64,000 nt of DNA, taken from NCBI GenBank assembly GCA_963719505.1, contig CAVRCF010000005.1, forward strand, positions 1,022,369 to 1,086,368, in the 5' to 3' direction. A program made the position numbers and the translations under genes. Each line of letters starts with the position of its first letter. Position 1 is the first letter of the stretch. Below, in pieces: positions 4,826 through 30,143 of the stretch. The stretch is from Halobacteriovoraceae bacterium. Its GTDB lineage: Bacteria; Bdellovibrionota; Bacteriovoracia; Bacteriovoracales; Bacteriovoracaceae. The notes under the pieces are model-generated. The model searched no databases and was not told where the DNA came from. It saw only the letters and a program-made list of their open reading frames with translations.

Positions 4826-4871
4826 AATCGGGTAACTCTTTAGTCGCTCAAAAACGGTAACGTATTTTCAG

Positions 4872-5879
4872 CTACTTAAATGAAAAATCTGGTCTTAAAA
4901 GGTGACAATTATAGCCATTTGGATTTTTGACAAGATAATCCTGATGAACATCTTCAGCGTCAACAAACTTACTCAGTGGCTCTATCTTTGTCACAACTGG
5001 ATCTTCGAGGTCACCAGATTTATTAATCTTCGCGATGAGTTCTTGGACTGTTTTCTTTTCCATTTCATCATTAGTAAAGACCGAACTTCTATATTGAGTT
5101 CCCTTGTCATTACCTTGTTGATTAAGTGTGGTTGGATCATGAATTCTAAAAAAATATCTTATTAAAGATTCATAGCTTAATTTATCTGAATCGTACTCAA
5201 CTTTAATGGCCTCAGCATGTCCAGTTGTTCCAGTTTTGACATATTTATAAGCCGCTTGTGTTGGCTCTCCGCCGGTATAACCGACTTCAGTGTTAATAAC
5301 GCCATCGAGTTTTCTAAGATACTTCTCCATCCCCCAAAAACACCCACCAGCAAGATATGCAGTTTTCATATTAGTTACCTTTTTTTTTTCAAAGAGTTTT
5401 AAATATTTTTCATATCCTCTTTCTTTAAGCTTCTCTTTGGGAATGAATTCTAGACTCGCAGAGTTCATGCAATACCTAAGCCCCGTCGGCTCGGGTCCAT
5501 CTTTAAAGAGGTGACCTAGATGAGAGTCTCCATACTTTGATCTTATTTCTGTACGAGGCAAAATGAGTTTAAAGTCTGTTTCCTCTACAATATTTTCTTT
5601 CTCAAGTGGTCTTGTAAAACTTGGCCATCCAGTTCCAGACTTGTATTTATCAAGAGAACTAAAAAGGGGCTCTTTAGAGACGATATCAACATAGATTCCC
5701 TCTCTTTTATTATCCCAGTACTCATTCTTAAAAGGAGGTTCAGTGTCCTCGTCTTGAGTCACTTTATACTGCATATCATTTAGTTTTTTCTTTAAATTTT
5801 TAACAGGCTTTTTGGTCTTCCAATCAACTGGATTAGCTAAGGCTGATACACAAAAAATAGACAATAAAATTTTTAACAT
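4872..5879 (-). CDS. msrAB: Secreted peptide-methionine sulfoxide reductase, MsrB-MsrA fusion
   Basis: The N-terminal half has the MsrB motifs GTGWPSF and [11 protein letters not shown]. The C-terminal half has the MsrA motifs GGCFWGME and [11 protein letters not shown]. Signal peptide [15 protein letters not shown] from ATG 5879 (the track start 5885 is a GTG two codons upstream). Confidence 0.9.
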
Positions 5880-5886
5880 AAACACC

Positions 5887-5981
5887 TCTTACCTCTTACC
5901 TCTTACCTCTTACCTCTTACCTCTTACCTCTTACCTCTTACCTCTTACCTCTTACCTCTTACCTATTACCTATTACCTATT
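5887..5981. repeat. Heptanucleotide tandem repeat: (TCTTACC)x11 perfect copies, then (TATTACC)x2 plus a partial unit
   Basis: Counted unit by unit. Eleven perfect 7-nt units span 5887-5963 and variant units span 5964-5981. The repeat directly abuts the msrAB ribosome-binding site. Confidence 0.95.
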
Positions 5982-6082
5982 GGTGAAATTTGAAGACATT
6001 TTATTACAGTCTTTTTTTCATCTTAACACTTAAAGAGGAGAAAAATGTTTAGTTATCTCCACAGTTGCCTGCAAACTACCGA

Positions 6083-6946
6083 TTATAGGAGCTCGATAGA
6101 TCCATTAAGATCTATTTTTATGAGATCAAATCTTTTGTAGGTCGGAAATAGCCTGCTCCCCACTGCTCCTATCGCAAGGTTTTGACAATCATAGGGACTT
6201 GGGTCGATATGATAATCCATAAAGCAATAAGCCTTGTCTCCATCTGTAAAAAGTTGAGAATCAATTGTCGAAAGGTATTCCTTATAGGCCGGATTCAACC
6301 AAAGAAACTTAAAGTCTAAGGGCTTTGGTTGGTACCTCTTGTAGAGAATAAATTTAGTCTCTCCTTTTTGAAAAAGAAAGTCTCCAGCTTTAAGATCTAT
6401 TATTTGAGTTGTAACCTTTTGATCTTCTGGGAGAAAGTGAAAAGCATCTCTTGAAAAAGTTAAAGTTTGCAAAAGTGTAACTTTACCTTTTTTTACTTCA
6501 AGAAATGATTGAGCAACCATTTCAAATTTGTAATCAGCAGTCTTAGCTGAGTGTAAATCTCTTAAGAAAAATTTAAATCCAACACCGCTGTATTTCTTTT
6601 CAAGAATTTCTTCTTTTAAAAGAACTTTTTGATCTTTTAATTGAGTCTTTAAATCAATACTTTTAAAGCCTGGGAAATCAGCCAGAGTAAATTCTCTTTT
6701 ATTTAAACAACTTGTTTTTGAATAGTTAATGGAGTTTTGATAAAAATGAAGTTTTAGACATTTATTAAATCTTTCAACAACAACCTTTGGAAGGTTATTT
6801 TCGTAAAAGTAAGGAGTCACTCGTCTATAGTTTTGGTAGTAAGATTCACCAAGACGTTTACTTAACTCACTTACTTTCTTTGCATCTACGATCAAGTCCG
6901 CAGCACTGGCACCAAGGGAAATAATCAATATTAGTAATATCCGCAC
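6083..6946 (-). CDS. Hypothetical secreted protein
   Basis: 287-aa ORF with GTG start after GGAG. N-terminal signal peptide MRILLILIISLGASAA. No family recognised. Confidence 0.55.
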   Translation of the reverse strand: MRILLILIISLGASAADLIVDAKKVSELSKRLGESYYQNYRRVTPYFYENNLPKVVVERFNKCLKLHFYQNSINYSKTSCLNKREFTLADFPGFKSIDLKTQLKDQKVLLKEEILEKKYSGVGFKFFLRDLHSAKTADYKFEMVAQSFLEVKKGKVTLLQTLTFSRDAFHFLPEDQKVTTQIIDLKAGDFLFQKGETKFILYKRYQPKPLDFKFLWLNPAYKEYLSTIDSQLFTDGDKAYCFMDYHIDPSPYDCQNLAIGAVGSRLFPTYKRFDLIKIDLNGSIELL

Positions 6947-6984
6947 GATAACTCCTTTTTTAAGGATTTTATATCACGATTTTT

Positions 6985-7017
6985 TTCAAAAAAAAGCCCT
7001 CTTTTACAAGAGGGCCT
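6985..7017 (-). terminator. Rho-independent terminator downstream of the E2 remnant
   Basis: GCCCTCTT/AAGAGGGC 8-bp stem (6996-7015) with a 4-nt loop. On the minus strand it is followed by a run of 8 T (plus-strand A run 6988-6995). Confidence 0.6.
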
Positions 7018-7042
7018 TAGACATTATCTAAATATTCGTTTT

Positions 7043-8358
7043 TTAAAGAAGATCTGTCGGATCCATTGTCTCGAGAGTGTTTTTTACATGCATCAAGAAC
7101 TTCGAACCAACCTCACCATCAATCAATCTGTGATCGTAAGTATGGGTCGCATACATAATATCTCTAATTGCCATGGAGTTGTCTGGCATAACTTCAACTG
7201 ACTTTTTAATCGTACCAACACAGAAGATACCAACTTGAGGCTGAAGTATGACCGGTGTCGCAGCTATGACTCCAAATGAACCATTGTTAGTGAAAGTGTA
7301 TGTTCCTTCACTCAAATCATCCATTGTAAGCTTCTTATTTCGCGCTTTAATAACGAGGTCATTTAGGCTTCTGGCAAGACCTGTAAGATTTAAATTATCA
7401 GCTCCTTTAATAACAGGAACGATTAAACCATTTCCAGGAACCGCAACTGCACAACCGATATTAATATCTTTTTTGTAGACGATATTATCTCCATCAATTG
7501 ATGCATTAACTGTTGGAAACTCTTTAAGAGCTTGAACTAAAGCATACATAACAAAGTGAGAGTAAGTTAAAGAGAAACCCTCTTCTTTTTTAAATTATCT
7601 TTTAAACTATTCTCTAATTTTCACAAGATTAGTCATATCGATATCATCAATTGAATTAACGTGAGGAGAAGTGAGCTTACTTGCCTGCATATTTTTAGCA
7701 ATCGCTTTTCTCATATTATCCATTGGTACGATTTCAACTTTTTCACTTGACGTGTAAGCTGGAACAGTCGAGAACTGAAATCTGATGAACCACCGGAGCT
7801 TGCACCTTTTTTCGAAGTCGATCCAGTCCCTCTGGTTTTTAGAAAATTTTCAAAGTCTTCTTTATTAACTCTTCCACCAGCTCCTGATCCGTCAATATCT
7901 TCTAAGCTCAGCTTAAGATCAACATCATTGTCACTGCTAATTTCTTAACAAGTGGAGTATAAAATCTTCTTCTCTGCGATTATTCTGACTTCGCTGAAGG
8001 CTTTGGCTTTTGAAGTTAGCCTTATCTTTCGGATCTTCTTCTTCATTTTTAGCAGAGTCTTCAGTTTTTTCTTCTTTTTTATCGGCTGAACCTGAGTCTG
8101 AAACTTCTGCATCCATATCTTCATCGATATACGGCAATAAGTTTTCCAACATCAATTGTCTCACCTTCAGGATAAAGTAATTTCAACAATCTTTCCTTCA
8201 ACTGGACTTGGAATTTCTGATTCAACTTTGTCAGTTGAGATCTCTAAAAGGATTTCATCAATTTCAATTTTATCTCCAACATTTTTATTCCAACTTGTGA
8301 TTGTACCAGTTGTGATTGACTCACCCATTTGAGGCATAACAACTTCAACGCGTGCCAT
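7043..8358 (-). pseudogene. Dihydrolipoamide acyltransferase (E2 of a 2-oxoacid dehydrogenase complex), multiply frame-disrupted
   Basis: Lipoyl domain MARVEVVMPQMGESITTGTITSW..ISTDKVESEIPSPVEGKIVEI (8167-8358). An E3-binding segment reads FYTPLVKKLA, then SDNDVDLKLSLEDIDGSGAGGRV in another frame. The catalytic domain has DHRLIDG (7043-7549). In-frame TAG and TAA occur near 7570-7600. At least five frame changes or stops were seen by hand translation. Confidence 0.75.
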
Positions 8359-13574: not shown

Positions 13575-13650
13575 GCGGTAGTAGCTCAGCTGGTAGAGCA
13601 TCTCGTTGCCATCGAGAAGGTCGTGAGTTCGAATCTCATCTACCGCTCCA
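13575..13650 (+). tRNA. tRNA-Gly (anticodon GCC), CCA encoded
   Basis: Cloverleaf folded by hand: acceptor GCGGTAG/CTACCGC, D arm GCTC-AGCTGGTA-GAGC, anticodon stem TCTCG/CGAGA with loop TTGCCAT, T arm GTGAG-TTCGAAT-CTCAT, discriminator T, then CCA. Confidence 0.93.
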
Positions 13651-13667
13651 TTTTATTTGATGATGTT

Positions 13668-13689
13668 GCTCCATTCGGGGCTTTTTTTA
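13668..13689 (+). terminator. Short hairpin plus T-run after the tRNA
   Basis: GCTCC-ATTC-GGGGC (one G-U pair) followed by TTTTTTT. Confidence 0.4.
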
Positions 13690-13815
13690 TTCTTTCTAAC
13701 TACTTACAAACATTAGAACTGTATACACTCAGTTTTTAAATCTTTCCGTTTATTTCTCCATCTTTCACTTAGTGCTTACCAAATGCTTACCAGTATTTTG
13801 AATTAGTAGCACCGT

Positions 13816-13896
13816 TAAGCACATGCTTGCATTTCGAGGCACAGTTTTTTGTAAACCACTAAAACCCTTAGCTTTTGTCTGTAAGCATATGCTTGC
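13816..13896 (+). promoter_or_regulatory. Two palindromic operator-like sites upstream of the tandem-HTH regulator
   Basis: TAAGCACATGCTTGC (13816-13830) and TAAGCATATGCTTGC (13882-13896; the core AAGCATATGCTT is a perfect palindrome), 66 bp apart. Also a direct repeat TGCTTACC-AAA-TGCTTACC at 13773-13791. Confidence 0.45.
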
Positions 13897-13944
13897 TTAA
13901 AAGAGCTACCACCACCTCACTTAAAATTCACAAGGAGAACAACT

Positions 13945-14580
13945 ATGAAAGAAATTACAGAAGTAATTAATCAAGACTATATTTCAAATAACGCAATCAT
14001 CTTAAAAAAAATGCGCCTGCTTAAAAGATTAAATCGCCAACAAGCCGGCCTACTATTCGACTTCTCATTCAAATATATTGAAAAGCTTGAAAATGGCAGA
14101 GGTGCGATTACACCTGAAAGATTTAGAGAGTTTCAAGAAAACTATGGCTTCTCTGACCGAGAAGTTGAAGATCTTAGGTCAGGAAAACTCGAGGCTCCAA
14201 CCGATGCTAATTGTATAAGAAGGACAATCTCAACTGACAAGAGACTTGATAAAAGGTTTCGGCACAAAAGAATTACACGTGAGTGCAAAGTTTTAAAAGA
14301 GCTAAGGCTTAGAATTAATCTAGACCAGTACTCCGCATCTAGTAGGTGTGGCGTTGGAAAAAATACTATAGGCTGGATTGAAAATGGCCGAGTCACCTTA
14401 ACAGATAAGAAGATCAGAACAATTGTAGAATCCTACGGCTTCACAATGGAGCTATTCAACCAACTCTTAAAAGTAAATCCCTTAAGGCATGAAATGATTG
14501 AGCAGTGTAGCGAGATCATTTCAAGCATGGATGAGAATAAGCTTAGGGTAATAATGCCGATGCTCCAAAGTATGAACTAA
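13945..14580 (+). CDS. Transcriptional regulator with two XRE-type HTH domains
   Basis: Two internal repeats of the pattern LK..R....L.Q......G.....I..IENGR..(I/L)T: LKKMRLLKRLNRQQAGLL..IEKLENGRGAIT and LKELRLRINLDQYSASSRCGVGKNTIGWIENGRVTLT. Confidence 0.7.
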   Translation: MKEITEVINQDYISNNAIILKKMRLLKRLNRQQAGLLFDFSFKYIEKLENGRGAITPERFREFQENYGFSDREVEDLRSGKLEAPTDANCIRRTISTDKRLDKRFRHKRITRECKVLKELRLRINLDQYSASSRCGVGKNTIGWIENGRVTLTDKKIRTIVESYGFTMELFNQLLKVNPLRHEMIEQCSEIISSMDENKLRVIMPMLQSMN

Positions 14581-14606
14581 TAATTAAACTAATAAAGGAA
14601 TAAAAT

Positions 14607-14756
14607 ATGAAATTGAATAATATCTTTAGAGTAGGCTTACAATTATCTGTAAGCTTAACTTTGAAACTTACAACCATTATGTCGTACTTATTCAGGCCAC
14701 TTCTCCATTTTTATTTAACTTGGGTAGTTCTTAACCTCATAAAGCTATATATTTAA
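14607..14756 (+). CDS. Possible 49-aa hydrophobic peptide (below the track cutoff)
   Basis: ATG 14607 preceded by AAAGGA. Translation MKLNNIFRVGLQLSVSLTLKLTTIMSYLFRPLLHFYLTWVVLNLIKLYI. There is no other support. Confidence 0.2.
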   Translation: MKLNNIFRVGLQLSVSLTLKLTTIMSYLFRPLLHFYLTWVVLNLIKLYI

Positions 14757-14819
14757 ATAAGTTTGTCTGCCGACTTGTCCACCAACACAATATCCCTTAG
14801 CCTATAGTTCGTATCTCCA

Positions 14820-15776
14820 TTATTTTCTATGAAAAGAAATAATTCTTACAGTCTCATTCCTCACAACAAATACTAATTTCCAATTTTTATTTAAATCGTC
14901 AGTAAGAATTATCTCTTGACGTGACTCATCACCATCTTTATTTGAATCTCTTTGTATCGTGCTAGGATAAAATTTGACAAACATTTTTACGACCTCTTTA
15001 AAACTAGGTCGGTCTTTCTCTTCATTTAATATCGATTTGTTTACATCCCATTCAAATTTAAACCTAACAAGCTCTCCCGGCATAATTTCTACCCTTTGAG
15101 ACAGATATCGATTTCCATCCAATAGCTCAACTCCAGTACCAATGATTTCTAAATAACCTAGAGCATCACATATAACTTGAGGGTGAAACTGGACAGTTGG
15201 AGAATTGTCAAAATCATGTGTATAAACGGATTCGTAAATTCTATTGTCAGTATTTTCAATTTGAATAAACGGCGGAACATACGGCATTATTCTATGGGCC
15301 GATGAGTTCCTAAAATCAGTGACGTGTTCGCTCAACCAAGTATGGTGCTTATTTAAAATCTCAACTAAACCATTGGGTAAAATTTCTTTAAAATCTTTCT
15401 TTTTAAATGATATGTCGAAGTGACTTTTATGATCAAAGTTATGTTCAAGTGCGTACACCCAAGCCAAATTATCAATCCCTCCGGAAATATTCATAAAAAA
15501 GAAGTTCAAAAGCACAGTTTGGTCAAAACGAACTCTTCTAGAAATTTCTTTGCCATCAATTTCTAGTTGAAATATTTCATAAAATCTTTCAACACATTCT
15601 TTTAAGTATAAAGTCCTCCGTGCCAATCCATGTTGTGAGTACTTTATAGCTTCTTTAGAAATTAGTTTATTATTTTTATTGATGTTTTTTATTAAAATAT
15701 CATCAAACTTTTCTATTACCTCTAAGTATTTAGTACAAATTTTATTCTGCGTTTCACGGTCATGTAAATAAGTCAT
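14820..15776 (-). CDS. HEPN-like (R-x4-H) domain fused to a C-terminal BrnT/DUF497-like toxin domain
   Basis: DFRNSSAHR (R156-x4-H161). The C-terminal 80 aa read FKFEWDVNKSILNEEKDRPSFKEVVKMF...WKLVFVVRNETVRIISFHRK, which parallels the BrnT hallmark FEWD-x-NK..N..KHG.SF.E...F ... (V/I)RIISAR(K)A. Confidence 0.6.
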   Translation of the reverse strand: MTYLHDRETQNKICTKYLEVIEKFDDILIKNINKNNKLISKEAIKYSQHGLARRTLYLKECVERFYEIFQLEIDGKEISRRVRFDQTVLLNFFFMNISGGIDNLAWVYALEHNFDHKSHFDISFKKKDFKEILPNGLVEILNKHHTWLSEHVTDFRNSSAHRIMPYVPPFIQIENTDNRIYESVYTHDFDNSPTVQFHPQVICDALGYLEIIGTGVELLDGNRYLSQRVEIMPGELVRFKFEWDVNKSILNEEKDRPSFKEVVKMFVKFYPSTIQRDSNKDGDESRQEIILTDDLNKNWKLVFVVRNETVRIISFHRK

Positions 15777-15787
15777 TTATAACTCCT

Positions 15788-17068
15788 TTAGTAGGATAAA
15801 AATAAGTCAGAATATTCAAGAGAATTAATTGCATCATAGATTATCCTCCACTCACCTCCACCCATATTTCGAGGAATTGTCTCTCCACTAGTATCAACAT
15901 ATAACAATCTAATCGTAGCACTCACAACTTTTTCATCTTCATCTGTTCTCTGGAAGTATACTTTAACATTTACATTTGTCGCAGCTGATGCTTGATCCTC
16001 AACACTTTCAATCTTATAATAATTAATAGTCTTACTTTTTAATTTTGCTCTAAGTTCTCCAGCGACTTTACTTATTTCCAATTTTTCTGAGCTAAAAGCA
16101 CTTTTTGTAAGACTCACTGCCTTTCCATAGTTGGCAGTGATTAAGTAATCTAAATACAAACCACAAGTATACTCAGGAGTACCAATCTCTAACTTGGAAC
16201 TGTCTATAGATTTAATCAGCTTTCTAGGTTTCCACTCTTTCATTGCACTCTTCTGCTGTTGTGTTTTGTATATTTGATTAATTAAGGTTTCCAAGGAATA
16301 TTTCTCTTCAATTTCTGGCTCATTATTAAGACTATGAGCCCAGTCACCTACAGCAAAAAGTAAACTCCAACACTTTGCTGCTAAGATTTTATTATCGTAA
16401 CCTAGGTCTCGGCCATGTAATATTCCATGCCGATAAGGCAAATATAAAGGATCGGCATTTGTCTTTTTTCTATTTTTAGTGAGTATCTTCTTTAAAGCTT
16501 TAAGGCCTTTCTCATGTCCCGAAATTGAATCATAGGAAGTCACATTAGATGAATCTGTATAGAGACCATTATTAGAAAGATCTGCCACCATTGCATCCGT
16601 CAAGCTTAGTAAAACTAAAACAACGGAGTAGTATCGACCCTCCAAATAATCTTTTAATATCTTATCAATAAGATTCATCCGAACCATATAACTCGGAATT
16701 GATTTCAAACGAGTTTTCAGAAATGTAATTTGTTCTTCTGTATAAAAATTTACTAATATATTTTCAGCTTCGTCTATATTTGATGAGTCTGCCTTATCAA
16801 CAGCAGCTTTCATAGTCTCATGGTTTAATGATTCATAGGCGATCCAACCTAGCTTAACAAAATGGTCATTAAATCGATCTGGCATTTGGATAAGCTCTTT
16901 AGCCAGTTTAAATTGTTTGGGTGCCTCTTTTGAAAGTCTTTCAATTAACTCTGCTTTAAATCCTAATTTACCTAATGCTTTCGCCCCCCAAATAAAGGGT
17001 TTGAGAATCTTCATTTGTTCTTCTAATTTTTTTAAAGATATATTCTCACTAATTTTTATTTCTTTCAT
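15788..17068 (-). CDS. Hypothetical 426-aa protein with a HEPN-like R-x4-H-G motif
   Basis: LPYRHGILHGRD (R213-x4-H218) sits in a helical context. The C-terminal ~150 aa are unassigned. The gene lies 11 bp upstream of the HEPN-BrnT-like gene on the same strand. Confidence 0.5.
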   Translation of the reverse strand: MKEIKISENISLKKLEEQMKILKPFIWGAKALGKLGFKAELIERLSKEAPKQFKLAKELIQMPDRFNDHFVKLGWIAYESLNHETMKAAVDKADSSNIDEAENILVNFYTEEQITFLKTRLKSIPSYMVRMNLIDKILKDYLEGRYYSVVLVLLSLTDAMVADLSNNGLYTDSSNVTSYDSISGHEKGLKALKKILTKNRKKTNADPLYLPYRHGILHGRDLGYDNKILAAKCWSLLFAVGDWAHSLNNEPEIEEKYSLETLINQIYKTQQQKSAMKEWKPRKLIKSIDSSKLEIGTPEYTCGLYLDYLITANYGKAVSLTKSAFSSEKLEISKVAGELRAKLKSKTINYYKIESVEDQASAATNVNVKVYFQRTDEDEKVVSATIRLLYVDTSGETIPRNMGGGEWRIIYDAINSLEYSDLFLSY

Positions 17069-17253
17069 AAATAATCCTTAATACTACTACGAATGATAGC
17101 TTCTCAAAGCATCTTTGGAAAGGACTCAAGGTAATGTTGTTAGCAAGTCAAGCCGTAAGCATAAAAGAATCACAACCATAAAGTGTTAAAGCTCCATTAT
17201 TCAATCTTATTTTTTTGAATATTCTTAAGTGTTACAGGTCTATCTTTTAAAAA

Positions 17254-17988
17254 TCAACTTAGCGTAGATCGTTGGTCATCATTTTTTGCTAAATCTCTTA
17301 GAAGAAAATAAGTAACTCTATTCATGAAGTATGCATTTGCAGGAAATGTTAAGCTGAATTGAACTTGTTTTTTCTTTAGTAAATCTGAATGAATTGTATA
17401 TTTCTGAGCTAAATCAAAAACGATGAAGTCATCATCTTCCTCATCTGTCATTCCCTGAAGTTCAGAAGGAGGTAGACTTAGTAATCTTGCTTTTTTATTT
17501 TGAAAAATCCCTGCTCTAGGATTAGGAGGACGAACACCTAGTAGCGATAAACTTTCGTCTTTTATTAGCTCTTCATATCTATACCCTGGGATAATGACTG
17601 AAAAAGCTTCTTGCTCTACAACACAGGTTTGGCTTAAAACAATCCAAAATGAAGTCATTAAACCAGATGCCTCCGTCGGAAAATCAGTATCTGATCTAAA
17701 AACATCCCCCTGCCTTACAAACTCAACAGGCCTAGAATACAAGTTTTCAGAAGATAACAACAATGATCTTTTTGTATGTTCTCCTAGTACTGACTCTATT
17801 TTAAAATTTCCGGTTGTAGGAGGATATTTTGGAATATAATCACGAAAAAAAATACCTGTTTTTGAGAAATATGACCTATTAAGATCAAAATATGATGCAT
17901 TAAAAGGGAATGACTCTAATTCATTGTGGGTTATTAAGTAGTCGTGATATTCGTCTAAGTCAGTAAACGTCCAGCTTGTATGGGTCAT
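17254..17988 (-). CDS. Hypothetical 244-aa protein in the toxin position of an Xre/DUF2384-type pair
   Basis: ORF 22 bp downstream of the HTH gene. No RES-type or other toxin motif was recognised. The acidic stretch MTDEEDDDF is notable. Confidence 0.45.
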   Translation of the reverse strand: MTHTSWTFTDLDEYHDYLITHNELESFPFNASYFDLNRSYFSKTGIFFRDYIPKYPPTTGNFKIESVLGEHTKRSLLLSSENLYSRPVEFVRQGDVFRSDTDFPTEASGLMTSFWIVLSQTCVVEQEAFSVIIPGYRYEELIKDESLSLLGVRPPNPRAGIFQNKKARLLSLPPSELQGMTDEEDDDFIVFDLAQKYTIHSDLLKKKQVQFSLTFPANAYFMNRVTYFLLRDLAKNDDQRSTLS

Positions 17989-18010
17989 ATTATATTAAGG
18001 CCTTAATTTT

Positions 18011-18457
18011 TTATTTAAATTTTGATACAACCGTCTTTATTACTGTAGATAATAATTTATTTTCAGGATTATCAACAATATGATCCAGTAGTGACAGATC
18101 TCCTTCATCACCAACAGGTTCATTTAATACATTCAAGATGTCACCATCGTTAATACCCTGCGAATAAATCTCCTCAACACAGCGATATAAACATTGAAGC
18201 CTACGAAATTTTGAAGGTACACTTGTTTGAGTAATCGTATATGCAGTCCAATTAGTTAAGGTTCTTTCTGACACCCCCAAAAGTGCAGCGATCATAGTTA
18301 CACGAACATTAAGTCGTTTTTCCAATATTGCAATTGCATCACTTCCTGTGACTTCAAAGTACTGATCTTCTTGCTCTAAATCTCTTGCTGCACCCATGAC
18401 ACTTCCTTGTATAGCAGGACTCTTTTTTACTAGTTCTGTGTGTTGTCCCATATTCAT
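18011..18457 (-). CDS. Xre-type HTH protein with a DUF2384-like C-terminal region (antitoxin-like)
   Basis: The likely start is ATG 18457 (AAGGAG 7 nt upstream); the track ORF extends to 18547. HTH segment VTMIAALLGVSERTLTNWT. C-terminal VLNEPVGDEGDLSLLDHIV resembles the Xre/MbcA/ParS toxin-binding region. Confidence 0.5.
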   Translation of the reverse strand: MNMGQHTELVKKSPAIQGSVMGAARDLEQEDQYFEVTGSDAIAILEKRLNVRVTMIAALLGVSERTLTNWTAYTITQTSVPSKFRRLQCLYRCVEEIYSQGINDGDILNVLNEPVGDEGDLSLLDHIVDNPENKLLSTVIKTVVSKFK

Positions 18458-18505
18458 TTTATACTCCTTAGTAGTATCGGTACATCTAGGCATAATTTTA
18501 CCACT

Positions 18506-18539
18506 TTTTCCGAAAAAAATCACCTTATTTTCCGAAAAA
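18506..18539 (-). promoter_or_regulatory. Direct repeat TTTTCCGAAAAA x2 upstream of the Xre-like gene
   Basis: Exact 12-mers at 18506-18517 and 18528-18539 (22-bp period), 50-80 bp upstream of ATG 18457. Confidence 0.4.
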
Positions 18540-18654
18540 CACATCATTTATTCATGCTGTCAGTACAAAACAAACATAAACTACTGATTTCTCGTGATCT
18601 TATCCGCCAGAACTATATCCAAAGCTAAAACCACCTGATCCTTCACCACCTACG

Positions 18655-21171
18655 CTACTGAACATAAAACCCTTTCCCTTGTACCTTCTTAATCCAATAA
18701 GGCACCTTAATATCTTCTCTTCTTTTTCCTGTCGCTAAATAAATATTTCTAAAACCGAGATCAAAGATTTCTTTGCTTAGTTCTTCTCCTTTGAGACCTT
18801 CCCCCAAATCAGAGTCAATATATATAGAAGTATTTTTATTGTAAGAAGTAGATGAACTTAAAAACTCTACCACACTAAAGTATGAAGAGAATTTTATATC
18901 ATTATTCTTTGCTGATCTTTTCCAATTTAAATGTGTAAATTTATCATCATCTATTAAAACAACTTCCTTAGGAGCCGATTGTTTAGTGAAACTTACAGCA
19001 ATATTTAAAACTGATTCTTTGGGGATCATTTTAATCCCAAACTTGGAACACATTTCTTGTACATCTAAATCTAAAAAATGGCTTGTAACCAAAGTACTAC
19101 GGTTATGAAGCTGATATGCATTGATTAAGTTTATACCTGTATCTAGTGAGCCAATAAGTTCTAAATCAATTAGATAAGAATACTCCTTTAAATCTTTATC
19201 CATTGCCCAATTTTCAAATTCTTTAGAGCTATATAAGTGAACTAATTTTGCATCAAGTGGGTTTAGTTTTTCATTCCAAAGCTTGTGAATTGACTCATCA
19301 TCATCAACGATTACAACTTGCTTAGAGGAAAGCTTAATTTTAGCAGTATACCAAGCCGGAGCCTCGATTTCATTCAAGGAAATTTTTAAAACAGTTCCTT
19401 GATCAGGATTCGATTCTATTAAAAGCTCTCCATTTTCTGATTCTATATAATCTTTTGCCTGATTAAGGCCTATTCCTGTACTATTTTTATTAAAACTTTT
19501 TCCATATTCAAAAACATCATTTAAATATTCTTTTTTAATTCCAATTCCATTATCTGAAATAATAATACTTACGTTTTCTTCATCTCGTTCTACATGAACC
19601 ACAATATAAATGGGGCTATTAGGCTTTTGAGCCTCGACAGAATTATTAATAATATTTGAAATAGCCCTATTAAAATCCGACTTTCTGATTTCTAAAAAAT
19701 AATCTTTAGAAGCAATTGAATCGAGTGATATATGAACATCTGGTCGATTTTTAAACTCAATACGTTTTTCAGAAACAATTCTTTTTAAAAGAGGATAAAT
19801 TGCTATTATTTCCTTTTTACTGCTTTCTTCAAGAATACTCTCTTCCTCATTGATTTTAAGGGTATTAATAATGTCTTGAATACGATTAAGGGATTGCCTT
19901 CCCATTAGTCTCAAGTCTTCTGTAACGCTATTTCGAGCTTCTAGCATAAAGAATTCTAGAGAAGTAAGAGGCGAATCAATATCATGTTGAAGCTTCTTAA
20001 TTATTTTAATATTTCCATTAGTGATCATTTGATGCATGCTTGCATTGGTAATAATTTTTGCCTCCTCAAATAGAGTTCGCACCATAACGGCCCCTAAAAT
20101 GAATATTTCGACGAGCAAACTAACTTTAACTAAATAGTTAACTTGAATTTCATTTATGTTCATAATACCTAGGTCTTTAAGCGTGAATGCAAGAGATGAA
20201 AAAAGAAACAGAGAAAAGCTAAACAAAAATGATTTTGAGTACTTTAACTTTCTAACCATCGCATAAATACATATACTCAAACTTGATACAGACAGCAATA
20301 GGGTTAAGTAACTGGTTAGCTTAATAATTGCTTGGTTATAAAATAATACACATAAAGCAAAGTGTACTACTGCCACAAACATTACTTTTCCATATGCCTT
20401 AATAAAGCGATCATTTTTTCTTTGATTTAGAAATGTTTTGTATATTAGCCCTACTGTTCCAAAGGTTAATATCCCACAGGCAAATACAACAGATCGGCTT
20501 ATGAAATACTGAGGCATAAATCTTAACATTGAAAATAAATAGCCTGAAAATGCTAATTGGATAATAAACAATGCAAAGATATGCATTGAGTAATAAATGA
20601 TTTCAACTTTTTTTCTAATATAGTAAAAAGCAAAAGTAAGTAAAATTGTTACAAATAAGACACCAAACCACAAACCATCAAAAATCCATTTTTGCTTCAA
20701 AAAAGACTGAAATTCATCTCGACTATTAAAAAGCATATATGGGAGTTGAATTGAACTCTGGGTATTAGTAATAGCAATAATTGTAGTATCTGATTCTCCT
20801 ATATTATCGAAATAGACATATTCGTCACCTTTATTGTCATTTTTTGAATAAGATTTCTCTTTTACTAATTCATTATTATTAAATTTATAGAAATTTATTT
20901 GATGAATCATTGGGAATGAAAAATAAAAAAGTTTATTACTTAGCTCATCATTAAGAATAAATGCGACTTTGTTTGTATTTTTAAAACCTAAGTTATTTTT
21001 CTTTGTCGACTTGGCACATTCAGAAATCTCCGCAATATTAATCTTTGAATTCACAAATGAATTGATAACGTCAATATCAGTACAATATTTGACGTTCGCT
21101 TGTACCGAGATTGAAATAAGAAGAATTAATAAGAAAACAAACTTATTGAGCACTATACCCCCCATCAACAA
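18655..21171 (-). CDS. Hybrid sensor histidine kinase: 7TMR-DISM-type sensor, HisKA/HATPase core, two receiver-like domains
   Basis: Signal peptide plus a ~160-aa extracytoplasmic domain, then seven hydrophobic helices. H-box LQHDIDSPL, N-box NNSVEA, G-boxes DNGIGI and GIGLNQA, then VVIVDDDESIH and VVLIDDDKF receiver-like segments. The start may be ATG 21165 or GTG 21153. It overlaps the SDR stop. Confidence 0.8.
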   Translation of the reverse strand: MLMGGIVLNKFVFLLILLISISVQANVKYCTDIDVINSFVNSKINIAEISECAKSTKKNNLGFKNTNKVAFILNDELSNKLFYFSFPMIHQINFYKFNNNELVKEKSYSKNDNKGDEYVYFDNIGESDTTIIAITNTQSSIQLPYMLFNSRDEFQSFLKQKWIFDGLWFGVLFVTILLTFAFYYIRKKVEIIYYSMHIFALFIIQLAFSGYLFSMLRFMPQYFISRSVVFACGILTFGTVGLIYKTFLNQRKNDRFIKAYGKVMFVAVVHFALCVLFYNQAIIKLTSYLTLLLSVSSLSICIYAMVRKLKYSKSFLFSFSLFLFSSLAFTLKDLGIMNINEIQVNYLVKVSLLVEIFILGAVMVRTLFEEAKIITNASMHQMITNGNIKIIKKLQHDIDSPLTSLEFFMLEARNSVTEDLRLMGRQSLNRIQDIINTLKINEEESILEESSKKEIIAIYPLLKRIVSEKRIEFKNRPDVHISLDSIASKDYFLEIRKSDFNRAISNIINNSVEAQKPNSPIYIVVHVERDEENVSIIISDNGIGIKKEYLNDVFEYGKSFNKNSTGIGLNQAKDYIESENGELLIESNPDQGTVLKISLNEIEAPAWYTAKIKLSSKQVVIVDDDESIHKLWNEKLNPLDAKLVHLYSSKEFENWAMDKDLKEYSYLIDLELIGSLDTGINLINAYQLHNRSTLVTSHFLDLDVQEMCSKFGIKMIPKESVLNIAVSFTKQSAPKEVVLIDDDKFTHLNWKRSAKNNDIKFSSYFSVVEFLSSSTSYNKNTSIYIDSDLGEGLKGEELSKEIFDLGFRNIYLATGKRREDIKVPYWIKKVQGKGFYVQ

Positions 21172-23825: not shown

Positions 23826-24077
23826 CTATTTGTTACAGGAATAATGTTTAATGAACGCAATATTATCAGCAAAACAGCATTTTCCAGAAGGATTTGCTGT
23901 TTCACAGAAACATCCGGGGACTTTCATTTTAGATTTAATATCATCTAGTATATCTTTTTCTCTACCCTCTTGAATGGCATTAAATAATTCTTGCTTAGAA
24001 TGTTTAAAACAGTAACAAATTAGTCCTTTAGTATTAAATTCAACTTCCGCTTTTTCTTTTTTGGCACAACAGCTCAT
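23826..24077 (-). CDS. Cys-rich small protein, BFD-like (CxC ... CxC ... CC) metal or Fe-S binding candidate
   Basis: 83 aa with MSCC, ICYCF, PGCFCETANPSGKCCF. 4-nt overlap with merTP. Confidence 0.45.
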   Translation of the reverse strand: MSCCAKKEKAEVEFNTKGLICYCFKHSKQELFNAIQEGREKDILDDIKSKMKVPGCFCETANPSGKCCFADNIAFIKHYSCNK

Positions 24078-24718
24078 AATAAACCTTCACAAGGTTTTTT
24101 ATTCTCAAAAGTCCAAAAAGCAACATATCCAGGACTCTTTTTTATTTCTTTGATTACTTTACAACCTGCTTCATCTGAAACTTTAATGACTGCACTTCCA
24201 ATGGTTTCTTTCGGCTTTGGATTGGAGTGGTCTATACTTAATATATCTGCATCTTTTAAGCCTGCTCTTTTTAAAGCTTCTCTCACTCCTAGCTCACATC
24301 CTCCACAAGTCATACCTTTGATGTATAAGGTTTTAACCTTGCCTATAGAATCGCTTGGTTGATTTTGTGCCTGAGCTACTGAAGAGAGCAACATTGGAGA
24401 GATCATGAACAGTATAGCTATAAATGTTCCAATACCTAAGCTAGTTCTTCTAAATCTCTTTTTCTTATGATCTGCACACATTGTTCCATCTTTGCATTCT
24501 TTTTGTTCAAGTCTGTAATTCATAATCCAACCTATTGTTATTAAAATAACCACAACTACTAAAATTATACTTCGATAATCTTCCAAAAAGAGTAAAGATG
24601 ATGCACCTCCTAATCCTAAAAAACCTAAAATCAATGGGCCGATACAACAAATAGAACTAGCGGTAGCCGCAATAATACCACCGCTAGTTAGACATTTTAT
24701 TAGCTTACTTTCTTTCAA
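24074..24718 (-). CDS. merT: MerT-MerP fusion (mercuric-ion transporter fused to a periplasmic HMA domain)
   Basis: TM1 Cys pair SSICCIGPLILGFLGLGG and loop pair ECKDGTMCA, as in Tn501 MerT (ACCLGPLVL, ACKPGEVCA). C-terminal HMA domain has GMTCGGCE. Confidence 0.75.
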   Translation of the reverse strand: MKESKLIKCLTSGGIIAATASSICCIGPLILGFLGLGGASSLLFLEDYRSIILVVVVILITIGWIMNYRLEQKECKDGTMCADHKKKRFRRTSLGIGTFIAILFMISPMLLSSVAQAQNQPSDSIGKVKTLYIKGMTCGGCELGVREALKRAGLKDADILSIDHSNPKPKETIGSAVIKVSDEAGCKVIKEIKKSPGYVAFWTFENKKPCEGLL

Positions 24719-24990
24719 TTACTACCAATTCCGGCGGCTCTTAAAGATTCCTCTGATGGGCCACCTCCATTAACACAACAATCGAGTAATTTTCCATTTA
24801 CAGCAACCGCTGGGTAACTAGATACTCCATACTTCTTTGCTAAATCTCTGCAAACATTGGTGTCACAACCTTTTTTTACATCATAAACAATAACTTCACA
24901 GCTATCACAGGCCAATGACTTAACTAAATCAACTGTAGGTAAACATTTAGAACACCCTTCAGTAAATACCTCTACTTTTCTTTTATTCAT
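24715..24990 (-). CDS. Thioredoxin-fold protein with CxxC
   Basis: Start ATG 24990 after GGAGG. VEVFTEGCSKCLP..YGVSSYPAVAVNGKLLDCC. Confidence 0.55.
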   Translation of the reverse strand: MNKRKVEVFTEGCSKCLPTVDLVKSLACDSCEVIVYDVKKGCDTNVCRDLAKKYGVSSYPAVAVNGKLLDCCVNGGGPSEESLRAAGIGSN

Positions 24991-25408
24991 TTTTTCCTCC
25001 TTGGAAATTCGAACAAGAACTACAACTCTCTTTTTTTGGAATAATATTCCAAATTGTTGCAATTACTAATATTATTATTCCAATATAGAACATTATTTCT
25101 ATGTTAAAAAATCTTCCTGAGATGCCTAAAAAAATAGCTACCGTCCCCAACCAAAAAGGCCTATAACCTCTGCGTGACTTAGCTCTAAAAGCTAAACCAA
25201 ACAGTGAGATTGAAATGAACAAACTAACAAGAATATCAAAGTAGAGACCTTCAAATAAAAAGCCTAAACCTATACTTGTTAAGAATCCACCTATAGCTGG
25301 GTAGCAAAAAGGACAAGAAGCCTTGGCTAAGATTGCAACCCCAATTCCTGGGCCAACAGACGCGGCACCAATTTCACCAGCTATTTTAGCATTACCTTTC
25401 TCATTCAT
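24983..25408 (-). CDS. merC: MerC-family membrane transporter
   Basis: SCPFCYPAIGGFLTSIGLGFLFEGLY parallels Tn21 MerC GCAACFPALASFGAAIGLGFLSQYEGLF. Four hydrophobic helices. C-terminal CSSC pair. Confidence 0.65.
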   Translation of the reverse strand: MNEKGNAKIAGEIGAASVGPGIGVAILAKASCPFCYPAIGGFLTSIGLGFLFEGLYFDILVSLFISISLFGLAFRAKSRRGYRPFWLGTVAIFLGISGRFFNIEIMFYIGIIILVIATIWNIIPKKESCSSCSNFQGGKNE

Positions 25409-25824
25409 TTTAATCCTTTTTCAAAGTTCTCTAAAATCGGGCATTGTGAAATAGACAAATCATTTCTCCCACAAGATTCAGATAAATTCTTTAGAGTTTT
25501 CTTTATTTTTTGAAGGTCTTTAATTTTTAGTTCAACTTCAACTATCTTCAAGTCCGCCTTGTTTTTTACTGATGAACATTTCGCTGTTCTACTTACTTTC
25601 AACTCAAGTAAATCTTTGGCTTCATTTAACGTGAAGCCTAGCTCTTGGGCTCTTTTGATAAATTTTATTTTTATTACGTCTTCGAAAGGATATTTTCTGA
25701 AACCTTCAGAGCTTGAAGGCTGTTTTATAAGACCTTTACGTTCATAAAATCTAATAGTATCAATTTTAACCCCAGCCTCTTTAGCTAGTTTTCCAATTGT
25801 AAATTTTATTTCTTTCTTATTCAT
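25405..25824 (-). CDS. merR: MerR-family metal-responsive regulator
   Basis: TIGKLAKEAGVKIDTIRFYERKGLI HTH segment, a coiled-coil region, and three Cys (AKCSSV, SESCG, SQCPILE) placed like the MerR metal ligands. Confidence 0.85.
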   Translation of the reverse strand: MNKKEIKFTIGKLAKEAGVKIDTIRFYERKGLIKQPSSSEGFRKYPFEDVIKIKFIKRAQELGFTLNEAKDLLELKVSRTAKCSSVKNKADLKIVEVELKIKDLQKIKKTLKNLSESCGRNDLSISQCPILENFEKGLK

Positions 25825-25830
25825 GAACTA

Positions 25831-25862
25831 ATTCTATACTCTGGACTATAGTCCAGAGTCAA
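25831..25862 (-). promoter_or_regulatory. MerR-type promoter/operator: TTGACT, 20-bp spacer containing a 22-bp perfect palindrome, then TAGAAT
   Basis: The minus strand reads TTGACTCTGGACTATAGTCCAGAGTATAGAATTAGTTCATG. The palindrome ACTCTGGACTATAGTCCAGAGT spans 25838-25859. Only 6 nt separate the -10 element from the merR ATG. Confidence 0.7.
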
Positions 25863-26138
25863 GTGTGAGCGAACATCAACAATATTAGACAGTTACAATT
25901 TGTACTACGCGGTGATACTTCAATTTTTCTAATTTTAGCTTTTGGATATTTTTAAAGGTACCTAAATGATTTTCTCCATAGCCAAAAAAAATAGAAGTAT
26001 AGTCATCACCTATCAAGAGTACTTAGAGAATAAGAAAATGGTAAAAAAAGATTGAACTACAAATCATAATCCGACGAAGCTACTTTTATAATGATACTAC
26101 GTATACAATCCCCCACCTAAGACTATAACTCTAAAAAC

Positions 26139-26398
26139 TTAGATTAAATTTCTCTGCAAGTAAGAATCTAAGAAAAAAAATAATAATGATTTTGGTATTG
26201 CTACAAGCACGCTCTTAGCATACTCAAATGATTGCTTTGCATCCCCCCACTCCATATGTGAAAAGGACAAAGCACACGCAAAGCAGTAAGAGGCAGGGCT
26301 GCTAAAAACCCTGCCAGTCCCCGTCCTCTTCTCCGAAGCCAAGAGACAAAACTAATTAATATTGCAGCAAAAACAGTTTTACCTACCGTTAGCCACAT
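26139..26398 (-). pseudogene. DUF3147-like small membrane protein, apparently frameshifted
   Basis: Two overlapping frames read MWLTVGKTVFAAILISFVSWL..LAGFLAALPLTAL and then ..ALSFSHMEWGDAKQSFEYAKSVLVAIPKSLLFFFL. Together they resemble one ~85-aa DUF3147-type protein. Identification is from memory of the family. Confidence 0.3.
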
Positions 26399-26470
26399 AT
26401 ATTAATCAAATAATTAAATATCTGATTACTCATAAATTCTTTATTCTAATTTTTTCGATATCCATTTATT

Positions 26471-28654
26471 TTAAATTTTTGTCATTTTTAATCTCAATGA
26501 ATTTGCAATAACCGAGACCGAGCTAAAGCTCATTGCTGCAGCGGCTATCATTGGACTCAATAAAATCCCAAACCATGGATAAAGCAATCCCGCCGCGATT
26601 GGAACTCCTGCAGCATTATAAATAAATGCAAAAAATAAATTTTGTTTTATATTTGCCATAGTGGATCGACTCAACCTTCTTGCTCTTACAATTCCTCGAA
26701 GATCCCCCTTAACCAATGTTACAGAAGCACTTTCCATTGCAACATCAGTTCCAGTTCCCATGGCAATTCCAACATCTGCAATGGCAAGTGCGGGCGCATC
26801 GTTTATTCCATCTCCGGCCATCGCAACCACTTTCCCTTGGGCTTGCAATTTTAAAATTACTTCTACTTTTTGTTCTGGAAGAACTCCTGCAATGACATTA
26901 TCAATATTTAACTTGCTCGCAACAGCTTCTGCAGTTGTCTTACTATCTCCAGTAAGCATAACAATATCTAAACCTTCTCCATGTAATTCGGCTATTGCTT
27001 GTATACTAGTTTCTTTAATCGGATCGGCGACTCCAATTATTCCTGCGAACTCATTATCTATTGAGACAAACATAACTGTCTGCCCTTCTTTTCTATAACT
27101 TTCGACCTCATCAATAATATGATCAACCGTAATATTTTCAGCGTTCATTAATGCTTTATTACCAAGAGCAATATTTTTTCCATTAATACTGCCTTTAACA
27201 CCTTTACCCGTTATTGAAGAAAAATTCTCAACATCGACAAGGCTTATATTTTCCTTTTTAGCTCCTCTCACAATCGCCTCTGCAAGTGGATGTTCACTAC
27301 CATTTTCTAAACTTGCGACAAGAGTCAAAAACTCTTCATTTTTGATTGTTGCTATAGGTTTAATCGTTACTAATTCAGGTCTTCCCATAGTTAGTGTACC
27401 CGTTTTATCAACGACCAAAGTATCAATCTTTCTCAACACTTCAATCGCCTCGGCATTTTTAAACAATACTCCCATGGTGGCAGCTCTACCAGTTGAGACC
27501 ATTATCGACATAGGAGTTGCCAGTCCAAGAGCGCATGGACAAGCAATTATTAGTACTGCGACTGAATTTATTATTGCATAGGCCATTGCTGGGCTTGGAC
27601 CAAAAGATGCCCAAACAATAAAGGTTACTACTGCGACCAATAAAACGATTGGCACGAAGCACCCTGCCACTGTATCTGCTAATTTTTGAATGGGAGCTTT
27701 ACTTCTTTGTGCTTCTGCAACCATATGAATAATTCGAGACAGTAAAGTATCAGAACCAATTTTAGTCGCTTTCATAACAAAGCTTCCGGTTCCGTTTATG
27801 GTAGCACCGACAACGTGACTTTCTTTAAATTTTTCGACAGGAATTGGCTCACCAGTAATCATTGATTCATCAACATTGCTTTTACCTTCTAATACAATCC
27901 CATCGACAGGAATTTTTTCTCCAGGTCTAACTCTTAATTTGTCATTTAATTGGACATTTTCAAGAGGAATATCTTCCTCTTCTCCATCTTTATTTATTCT
28001 TCTGGCCGTTTTGGCGGCAAGACCCAGTAGTTTTTTTATTGCCTCTCCAGTTTGGCTTCTTGCTTTAAGCTCCAATACTTGTCCCAAAAGAATCAAAGTA
28101 ACAATAACTCCTGCTGCTTCAAAATAGACTGACACATGTCCATTACTATCTCTAAACGAAACGGGAAATAGATCTGGAATTAATGTTGCAATTAAACTGT
28201 AGATAAAAGCAACGCTGACCCCAATACCAATGAGGGTAAACATATTTAAATTTCTTCTAACAATTGAACTTAGTCCTCTTTCGTAAAATGGCCACGCTGA
28301 ATATAGACACACAGGTATAGCGAGTATCAACTCAATATAATTTTTCATTTTTGCTGAAAACATGTTTGAAATAGGCTGACCTGGTAAGAGGTCCCCCATT
28401 GAGATTATGAATAAAGGAATGGTGAATAAAGCAGCAAGCCAGAACCTTTTCGTCATATCCTTTAATTCGACATTTTCTCTGTCATCAGCAATAAGAGCTT
28501 CTAGTGCCATACCGCATTTCGGACAATTTCCAGGCCCGATCTGCCTTATCTCTGGATGCATGGGACACGTGAAGATAGAAGTACTTTCTACATTTACTTT
28601 TTTGCCATCACTTTTATGCTTATGTTCGGAATGACAGTTTTTATGATCTTCCAT
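26471..28654 (-). CDS. copA: Copper-translocating P1B-type ATPase
   Basis: N-terminal [25 protein letters not shown] metal-binding domain, TGEP, CPC ([12 protein letters not shown]), DKTGTLT, HP (SEHPLA) and [10 protein letters not shown]. Confidence 0.92.
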
Positions 28655-28833
28655 ATTGTTCCTTTAATGGATATTCTGAATGAGACTAATTGCTTCTGCT
28701 TTGGCCAAAATATTTGTAAACTCAAGTGATGATTCCCTATATCGTTGTCAATATCTATAGCTTAGAATACCCCTCTTTATTAAGATTCTAGCGAAGCAGA
28801 AATAAATTTTCACTTCACTAGATCATTTAATAT

Positions 28834-29160
28834 TTATCGTCTATCACCAGCGGTCCAGAAACGATTTGCTCGTTCGATATTTTGTTCAATATTTTCCTTA
28901 AACTTATTCATTTTCTCTTCAGAGGAAAAGTAATAAGTTTCACCGTGGTGAATAATTTTATAATCTTCATTACCCGCGACATGAGAATCCCCCATGGCCA
29001 ATGACATCGCACAGTGTTTGTTAAAGACTTCACCATTGTCACTATGCATCTCACAATTTTTTTCACATTTATGATGATGATGTCCGCCATCACTTTTATG
29101 ATGGTGAGCACAAGAGCTAAATAAAAACAAACTTAAAATTGATAATAAAAATAATTTCAT
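28834..29160 (-). CDS. His-rich lipoprotein with a YHS-like domain
   Basis: Lipobox LFSSC, HHHKSDGGHHHHKCEK, then NEDYKIIHHGETYYFSSEEKMNKF resembling YHS/TRASH. Confidence 0.6.
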   Translation of the reverse strand: MKLFLLSILSLFLFSSCAHHHKSDGGHHHHKCEKNCEMHSDNGEVFNKHCAMSLAMGDSHVAGNEDYKIIHHGETYYFSSEEKMNKFKENIEQNIERANRFWTAGDRR

Positions 29161-29183
29161 AAAATTTCCTTTATAGATTTATA

Positions 29184-29795: not shown

Positions 29796-29894
29796 AATAA
29801 ATTAATGCTACAGAAGCTGTAATAAGTAAGCATTTCCTTCAGTCTCTGTATTGCCATATGCTACATCATTTCAAACTTGATAATTGTAACCACT

Positions 29895-29913
29895 TATACC
29901 CCTTATGGGTATA
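29895..29913. promoter_or_regulatory. CsoR-type operator candidate, box 1
   Basis: TATACCCCTTATGGGTATA (arms TATACCC/GGGTATA), 100 bp upstream of the DUF3347-YHS-copA genes. Confidence 0.6.
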
Positions 29914-30143
29914 AAAAAATAATTTATGTCATATTCCTTAATACAAAAGTAAATATGCAGGAAAAGACTTTAAGCATCTTATTAACACTTTCTTGCAATA
30001 AGTATATTTCTGGAGTCTTAAGGTTGACTAATAAAGAAGGCTTTCTATTTTTTCTCTTTGAATTTACTTTTATATTTTATTGTTGGCATGAGATTATTAT
30101 TTTTTTATCTCATTGTTAGAAATCAAATTAATCTAATCATGTA

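Follow-up and report, generated by a model that had tools for sequence, protein, structure and literature searches.

PrrC and RloC are latent anticodon nucleases embedded in type I restriction-modification (R-M) loci, and CapRel(SJ46) is a fused toxin-antitoxin (TA) immune protein. RNase effectors of the HEPN and RelE types are already known from mobile islands. ApeA acts as a single protein, a HEPN anticodon nuclease that a ligand switches on (bioRxiv 10.64898/2026.01.26.701840), and the BrnT family consists of TA toxins (PMC10714953, PMC13284704). Work on BrnT, Aave_1720 and RelS ties toxicity or RNase activity to the Lys and His of a K-H-G motif, to an Arg close to the C-terminus and to a C-terminal Glu (PMC13284704, PMC10714953). 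HEPN domains have a helical core in which the R-x4-6-H motif closes helix 3, ahead of the loop that leads into helix 4; helix 2 bears an acidic residue and is separated from helix 3 by an insert (PMC3710099). The locus described here lies in a 64,000 nt stretch (the window) of contig CAVRCF010000005.1 from a Halobacteriovoraceae bacterium (positions 1,022,369 to 1,086,368), and consists of two genes, A and B, carried together as a small cassette.

Both genes are on the minus strand: gene A at 15788..17068 (426 aa) and gene B at 14820..15776 (318 aa), separated by an 11 bp spacer (15777..15787, minus) that carries an AAGGAG ribosome-binding site for gene B. An earlier note, made from the sequence alone, had read them as two co-oriented genes 11 bp apart, a HEPN-like protein followed by a HEPN-BrnT fusion; the two open reading frames (ORFs) are exactly as it described, and the motif residues (R213/H218 in A; R156/H161 and the terminal FEWD...RIISFHRK in B) are where it had placed them. 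The overall best explanation, to which we give a probability of about 50%, is that A and B are latent, single-chain, RNA-targeting (RNase-type) defence effectors. Both would be of the abortive-infection or defence type, silent until triggered and, by analogy with the single-protein HEPN system ApeA, would need no separate antitoxin. In gene B, the HEPN-like domain would be the probable RNase, and the BrnT-like domain would be a partner that is always attached, serving as a regulatory switch or as an RNA- or ribosome-targeting subunit, and not a free toxin restrained by a labile antitoxin. A stable fusion is ill-suited to an antitoxin that must be degraded separately, so a fixed regulatory or targeting partner is the more likely role for this domain. 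We infer that A and B are probably functionally separable.

Judged from sequence comparison, gene B is the single-chain form of a conserved two-gene pair. A word-indexed homolog search recovered gene B alone; an exhaustive phmmer search of 1.84 billion representative proteins gave at least 600 matches, in which residues 1–220 aligned with stand-alone proteins of 210–270 aa and residues 222–318 with stand-alone proteins of 98–106 aa. No second full-length fusion was present among the phmmer matches. Each half has its best match in one of two neighbouring genes, of 224 and 98 aa, which lie 5 bp apart in two sets of loci from other lineages (L216-L219 and L220-L223). The pairs of the two sets are 60% and 63% identical to each other in the first and second protein, respectively, and each set shows 49% and 53–58% identity to the corresponding halves of B. 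In L216-L219, the gene order is hsdM, a 437 aa YopA_M/HEPN_Apea/YopA_C protein, the 224 aa gene, the 98 aa gene and a DEAD/ResIII hsdR-like gene; in L216, this type I R-M locus occupies 369-7547, with three genes inserted between hsdM and the hsdR-like gene. In L220-L223, the pair comes after an HNH_3 gene.

The junction in gene B reads ...ELLDG-NRYLSQRVEIM, while in the split form ...SLKDLKE* is followed by MNSFISREIEIM, and it looks as if stop codon, spacer and start codon had dropped out to create the fusion. At least six independent contigs and an 83% identical ortholog (L135) carry the fusion unbroken, and the ratio of nonsynonymous to synonymous substitution rates (dN/dS) is 0.09 for residues 114–221 and 0.08 for residues 222–318, with an overall range of 0.06–0.09 across the two domains of B. 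An assembly or frameshift artefact was rejected on these grounds (intact copies and a dN/dS of about 0.08), and the fusion is, by the same measures, retained under purifying selection. The BrnT-like neighbour is absent from more distant relatives of the N-terminal domain of B (B-N; 39–43% identity), and from 75 of the 77 B-N loci found in metagenomes. At locus L106 (114-1217), a B-N gene is seemingly truncated after AHRIAPYIPP, and 140 bp further on is a canonical BrnT (K-H-G, RRISARRA). This was judged a coincidental juxtaposition, one that probably reflects a BrnTA module inserted at this site rather than kinship with the gene B arrangement.

The C-domain of gene B (residues 222–318; 14823..15113, minus) was assigned by Pfam and PHROG searches as a divergent BrnT/DUF497 domain (RelE-fold). 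Residues 243–315 match the Pfam model BrnT_toxin (E 2.8e-6, 28 bits), which is below the gathering score of 34.5, so that strict PF04365 membership is not well supported for the fused protein, and the domain also matches PHROG 4399, a 'ribonuclease toxin' (E 5.7e-6). It is 58% identical to the stand-alone 98 aa protein P0130, and the split orthologs P0130 and P0261 match PF04365 with E-values down to 7.8e-10 and carry precomputed PF04365 matches. Homology of the C-domain to BrnT is well supported by these alignments. Its predicted secondary structure is beta-beta-alpha-alpha-beta-beta-beta. In place of K-H-G it has K254-D255-R256, keeping the Lys but with the His position occupied by D255 (N in L135, G in L216 and L220). 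The position of the RIISAR Arg is H316 (Y in L135), and the protein ends at residue 318, 2 aa after RIISFH, so that the C-terminal helix with its Glu is absent. The C-domain lacks the K-H-G His and the C-terminal helix, and therefore does not qualify as a canonical BrnT toxin. The BrnT fusion proposed in the earlier note thus stands as a BrnT/DUF497-type domain joined to B-N, but the domain scores below the gathering threshold and is not canonical. It is a divergent, possibly non-canonical or inactive, member of the fold; the conserved K-x-R-P-S-F and C-terminal [H/Y]-R-K residues would leave RelE/YoeB-like chemistry open.

These features bear on a second explanation, that of a classical addiction module in which the BrnT-like domain is the toxin and the HEPN-like protein or domain upstream of it the antitoxin (or the reverse), serving to stabilise the island and not to defend against phage. 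Two small genes 5 bp apart, the ancestral layout, recall a type II TA operon; BrnT proteins are TA toxins (PMC10714953, PMC13284704), and the locus is on mobile DNA. However, the fusion is stable under purifying selection, unlike a labile antitoxin that is degraded separately; the His required for the toxicity of BrnT, Aave_1720 and RelS is replaced by D, N or G; B-N retains the invariant, catalytic-type residues of a mostly solitary family; and a DNA-binding antitoxin domain is absent. We regard an addiction module as quite unlikely. Within the cassette borders there is no BrnA, MNT or other antitoxin-like gene and no DNA-binding antitoxin domain, in agreement with the earlier finding of no recognisable antitoxin, and no ORF encoding a BrnA (ribbon-helix-helix, RHH) protein was found in the window, L135, L216 or L220. 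Rfam detected only a tRNA in the window, and a scan for promoters and terminators scored no higher than chance, which leaves neither an RNA antitoxin nor a terminator in evidence. The absence of an antitoxin is normal for these genes because both families are usually solitary, like ApeA and other single-protein HEPN defence genes.

B-N (residues 1–221; 15114..15776, minus) was delimited from its phmmer family, conservation and AlphaFold2 (AF2) topology as a HEPN-like domain, for which there is no Pfam model. Searches with B-N of Pfam, NCBIfam, PADLOC and PDB sequences gave no match, and PADLOC models gave no meaningful match to 96 B-N homologs. The R156-x4-H161 motif (15294..15311, minus) has the family consensus FR[DN]xxAHR (DFRNSSAHR in B). 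Chance alone is expected to produce an R-x4-H spacing in any one protein; it is meaningful in A and in B-N because it is conserved across homologs, and 146 B-N homologs keep R156 and H161 without, or almost without, exception. The near-invariant residues of B-N are G50, R53, R54, G99, D102, N103, W147, R156, H161, R162 and Y166. The AF2 model of gene B (predicted local distance difference test, pLDDT, 88; predicted template modelling score, pTM, 0.82) places D102 and N103 in a helix at 80-111, followed by an insert (112-144), a helix (145-161) that ends with R156 to H161, and a helix at 197-220. This layout, which is predicted secondary structure only, fits the published HEPN description (PMC3710099). 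Across the 146 members there are 11 weak matches to six HEPN-clan Pfam families, all below threshold; they include HEPN_Cthe2314 (0.0074), Abi_2 (0.01), HEPN_Apea (six times, best 0.045), HEPN_Swt1 (twice) and HEPN_LA2681, and HEPN_Apea is the commonest Pfam match among 96 B-N members. Such recurrent weak matches to the clan are suggestive, not decisive. From its conserved residues and predicted topology, B-N likely belongs to the HEPN superfamily.

The family of gene A comprises at least 289 homologs at no fewer than 339 genomic loci in representative genomes of Bacteria and Archaea, with homologs in six viral contigs and seven plasmids. Gene A has no family model match in Pfam, NCBIfam or PADLOC, no meaningful match of PADLOC models was obtained for 43 A homologs, and searches of PDB sequences with gene A, gene B and their profiles returned nothing relevant. 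Its dN/dS is 0.13 in comparison with the copy at L001. The R213-x4-H218 motif (PYR[HN]GILHG; 16415..16432, minus), carried in gene A by LPYRHGILHGRD, is invariant in the 43 homologs, in a local sequence that is rich in Pro and Gly; the invariant residues also include R130, D140, R145, D158, D163, D180, H185, R200, K202, P211 and G219. In the AF2 model (pLDDT 84), a helical N-terminal part is followed by an NTF2-like C-domain of three helices and four long strands (approximately residues 291–426; 15791..16198, minus). For this C-domain, Foldseek against the PDB gave NTF2-like matches (the N-domain of PBP5 and PBP2a, SdnG, 3k7c and 2jq5) at E-values of about 3e-3 to 2e-2, and two family members have weak MecA_N matches.

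Some relatives of gene A are 665-666 aa long (P0007, P0010) and carry the A N-domain in tandem, with two PYR[HN]GILHG motifs and a single C-terminal domain. They were considered as possible A+B fusions and rejected, being tandem duplications of the A N-domain; such doubling would fit an active unit that is a dimer, as it is in HEPN enzymes. At locus L005 (3289-7760), a 50% identical A homolog lies beside the gene for a 535 aa SEC-C-motif protein in divergent orientation, and an unrelated 494 aa gene is 6 bp downstream. Public records label some A homologs as 'zinc chelation protein SecC', probably on account of the NTF2-like domain, and plasmid records annotate A and B-N homologs only as 'hypothetical protein'.

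Several results weigh against reading A and B as latent RNA-targeting effectors. All Pfam matches of B-N are sub-threshold, with no significant profile match to a curated HEPN family, and hhalign of B-N against an ApeA-like profile gave a probability of 0.1. Foldseek with gene B found nothing in the PDB and BFVD at E <= 1e-3, the query being the whole two-domain protein and helical bundles being hard for such searches. For gene A, Foldseek against the PDB detected the NTF2-like domain only and no HEPN structure, no HEPN-clan Pfam family matched the 43 members even at E <= 10, and hhalign against B-N and against the ApeA-like profile gave a probability of 0.2. The R-x4-H of gene A lies in a region modelled as coil (197-226, with pLDDT below 50 at 202-222) and not at the end of a helix. 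There is no model for A or B in PADLOC (PADLOC-DB v2), the genes around A homologs show only a mild enrichment in defence genes, and, as A and B lie only 11 bp apart and travel together, the two may depend on each other. The earlier description of both proteins as HEPN-like is thus plausible for B-N and upheld for both as to the R-x4-H, but neither has a significant profile or structure match and A is placed by its motif alone. A and B-N as paralogous HEPN domains were rejected, hhalign showing no similarity between the two, and from its sequence motif gene A is a tentative HEPN candidate.

Much of this would also suit an explanation in which the proteins are not RNases at all, the R-x4-H being coincidental or serving another chemistry or binding, with a non-defence function on mobile DNA. 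It draws on the lack of a significant HEPN profile or structure match for either protein, on the coil predicted at the gene A motif, and on the many other invariant polar residues of A, which suggest a more elaborate site. Set against it, the weak matches of B-N recur specifically to HEPN-clan families, its predicted topology fits HEPN, it is partnered with an RNase-toxin fold, and one lineage occurs in an R-M/ApeA context. We give this explanation a small probability only.

The relationship between A and B was examined through their co-occurrence and neighbours, using related loci gathered in part with a hand-made degenerate DNA pattern. When every ORF in 85 loci of the A family was searched with profile hidden Markov models (HMMs) for B-N and for the BrnT-like domain, matches came only from the window and from L001/L002, leaving gene B in 0/83 A loci outside this lineage. 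Conversely, the A HMM matched in 0/77 B-N loci. The A+B pairing is confined to this lineage (the window, L086-L091 and L001/L002), and the co-occurrence across genomes anticipated for a functional module was not borne out. Given 0/83 and 0/77 pairing elsewhere, A+B is a lineage-specific, jointly mobile cassette and not a conserved system; the conserved partnership is that of B-N with the BrnT-like protein, within gene B. Neighbour clustering gave no conserved partner for the A or the B-N family. The 135 nearest neighbours of A homologs fall in 101 Pfam families. Integrases and transposases are the most frequent, and Fic, Uma2, RVT, type I S-subunit and HepT-like genes occur here and there. Both families are found on viral contigs and plasmids. 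No system-level match came from PADLOC, NCBIfam or PHROGs, and PADLOC models match neither protein, in line with the earlier note, which could place the locus in no named defence or TA system.

The borders of the cassette are given by its homology limits, against L001 at 17139 and against L135 at 14812, defining a unit of about 2.33 kb (14812..17139, minus). Its edges lie 8 bp past the stop codon of B and about 70 bp ahead of the start of A, so the cassette carries along an upstream region (17069..17139, minus) that is within the L001-homologous block; a promoter-like site in it (17121..17093) scored 9/12, which is not above chance. L001 and L002 are homologous to the window only from 17139, with gene A 83% identical (83–84%), a B fragment 91% identical and, in L001, the same 11 bp gap between A and B. 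Upstream of the L001 copy, two integrase genes and an HTH_17 gene take the place of the window flank. The L135 contig carries the last 205 aa of the 83% identical B ortholog; homology ends at 14812 and unrelated genes follow. L001 and L135 appear to represent one lineage, based on their matching identity levels and their origin in sister-sample contigs. The flanks of the cassette are different in each of the three contexts, and from these alignments A and B certainly moved jointly between contexts as a unit of about 2.33 kb. At the left edge of the cassette, a patch of about 55 bp (17140-17195) is wholly divergent between the window and the otherwise 99% identical L086, perhaps as the scar of a recombination event. 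A and B probably share a transcript.

Such joint movement raises a further possibility, that of an integrated system in which A is a sensor, regulator or neutraliser of B, or an effector controlled by B, the whole having three domains and an exchangeable upstream partner. The 11 bp spacing with its own ribosome-binding site suggests a single transcript, and the cassette borders enclose exactly A and B, which moved together. Moreover, the B-N/BrnT-like unit follows a nuclease-like gene of 339-437 aa in three lineages, at 6, 56 or 11 bp. The upstream partner is A here, an ApeA-like protein in L216 and an HNH_3 protein in L220. These three upstream genes are, however, mutually unrelated, both families are otherwise solitary, and B is missing from all 83 outside A loci just as A is from all 77 B-N loci. 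Islands also commonly hold defence genes that are adjacent yet independent. An integrated system is considered unlikely, and A and B as separable latent effectors is the reading that we prefer.

The cassette lies within a larger island, in a genome of the Bacteriovoracaceae/Halobacteriovoraceae type to judge by the names given to a conserved protein nearby. A tRNA-Gly(GCC) gene at 13575-13650 (plus; ARAGORN and Rfam) is the left border of the island and is outside the cassette. Compared with metagenome contig L086, the window is 57–72% identical to the left of the tRNA gene and 93–100% identical from the tRNA gene to about 18.6 kb, beyond which identity is 89–97% through a 7TMR-DISM histidine kinase gene (window 13575-20600). 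This jump in identity at tRNA-Gly indicates a horizontally shared island with the tRNA gene as its left border. The right end of the island was not reached, as L086 ends first. The earlier description of a tRNA-flanked island was therefore right as to a real island border, but the window has only one tRNA gene and the island is bordered by a tRNA on one side only. To the right of the cassette are the 7TMR-DISM histidine kinase, a sigma-54 activator, and mercury and copper resistance genes, and there is no integrase within 18 kb on this side. The metal-resistance cluster (24074-32330, minus) includes MerT, a thioredoxin-like protein, MerC, MerR, a heavy-metal P-type ATPase and a multicopper oxidase, and may be cargo of the same island. 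No R-M genes were found near the window copy of the cassette.

Upstream of gene A are two unannotated minus-strand genes of 244 and 178 aa, 23 bp apart (17254-18547), the second having a weak helix-turn-helix (HTH) match. Though part of the island, they fall beyond the A+B cassette and may form a further small module. On the other side, the 49 aa ORF reported downstream of gene B exists (14607..14756), and a 211 aa double-HTH (Xre) gene that had been overlooked (13945..14580, plus) converges on gene B. Its product has weak matches to antitoxin models of the MqsA/HipB type and to PADLOC HTH_VI. The gene is present in L086-L091 and absent beside the orthologous cassette copy in L135, and it was rejected as a component or antitoxin of the cassette because of this absence.

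What is new at this locus are the two families lacking models, the pairing and fusion of a HEPN-like with a degenerate BrnT domain, and the gene A architecture of an R-x4-H motif with an NTF2-like domain. A full-text literature search for HEPN together with DUF497 returned no such fusion, judging by titles and abstracts. Both families are large, B-N with at least 600 clusters at 50% identity and A with its 339 or more loci, and both are without a Pfam, NCBIfam or PADLOC model. They share the traits of mobile effectors, being solitary, in varied contexts, with integrase and transposase neighbours, carried on plasmids and viral contigs, and with invariant residues of catalytic type. The fusion is a natural 'Rosetta stone' in which a HEPN-like and a RelE/BrnT-fold protein work as one unit. 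At 318 aa, or 224 and 98 aa when split, it offers a compact case for how RNase effectors that lack an antitoxin stay silent, and gene B could show whether toxin folds that have degenerated find a new use in regulation or targeting. A more far-reaching proposal, which we consider doubtful, is that the HEPN-like and degenerate BrnT/RelE pair would be a new type of immune RNase, with a fold once used by a ribosome- or RNA-binding toxin as its sensing or targeting subunit or as an intramolecular antitoxin, and that A would found a second, widespread single-gene immune family (R-x4-H plus NTF2-like; in Bacteria, Archaea, plasmids and prophages) outside current defence catalogues.

Compared with known systems, the cassette resembles HEPN-MNT (HepT-MntA) modules in having a protein with a HEPN-type R-x4-6-H motif, a tight two-gene unit and a location on mobile DNA. 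Unlike them, it has no nucleotidyltransferase gene and no HepT or HEPN Pfam match, and the partner is a RelE-fold protein for which fusion is tolerated. In relation to BrnT-BrnA (PF04365/DUF497), the C-domain of B keeps FEWD, the Lys of K-H-G, the S-F motif and RIIS, as well as the predicted beta/alpha/alpha/beta/beta/beta order. It differs in an extra N-terminal strand and in the absence of the BrnA (RHH) gene, the His needed for toxicity, the RIISAR Arg and the C-terminal helix; its partner is upstream instead, a 220 aa HEPN-like protein that is fused to it here. The closest parallel to PrrC and RloC is found in L216, where the pair and the ApeA-like gene lie between hsdM and the hsdR-like gene, a placement of the prrC type. 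Only one lineage shows this placement, R-M genes are missing from the surroundings of the window copy, and there is no sequence relationship to either nuclease.

ApeA is likewise a stand-alone HEPN effector without an antitoxin, latent until activated. HEPN_Apea is also the commonest weak Pfam match of B-N, and an ApeA-like gene is directly upstream of the pair in L216. In contrast, B-N has no significant sequence or profile match to ApeA (hhalign probability 0.1), and ApeA is about 440 aa, with YopA_M and YopA_C and without a RelE-fold partner, whereas B-N is about 220 aa and has neither YopA domain. The folds of CapRel(SJ46) are unrelated to those of gene B, but, as in CapRel(SJ46), a single polypeptide unites partners that are separate elsewhere, which suggests intramolecular control of a toxic domain.

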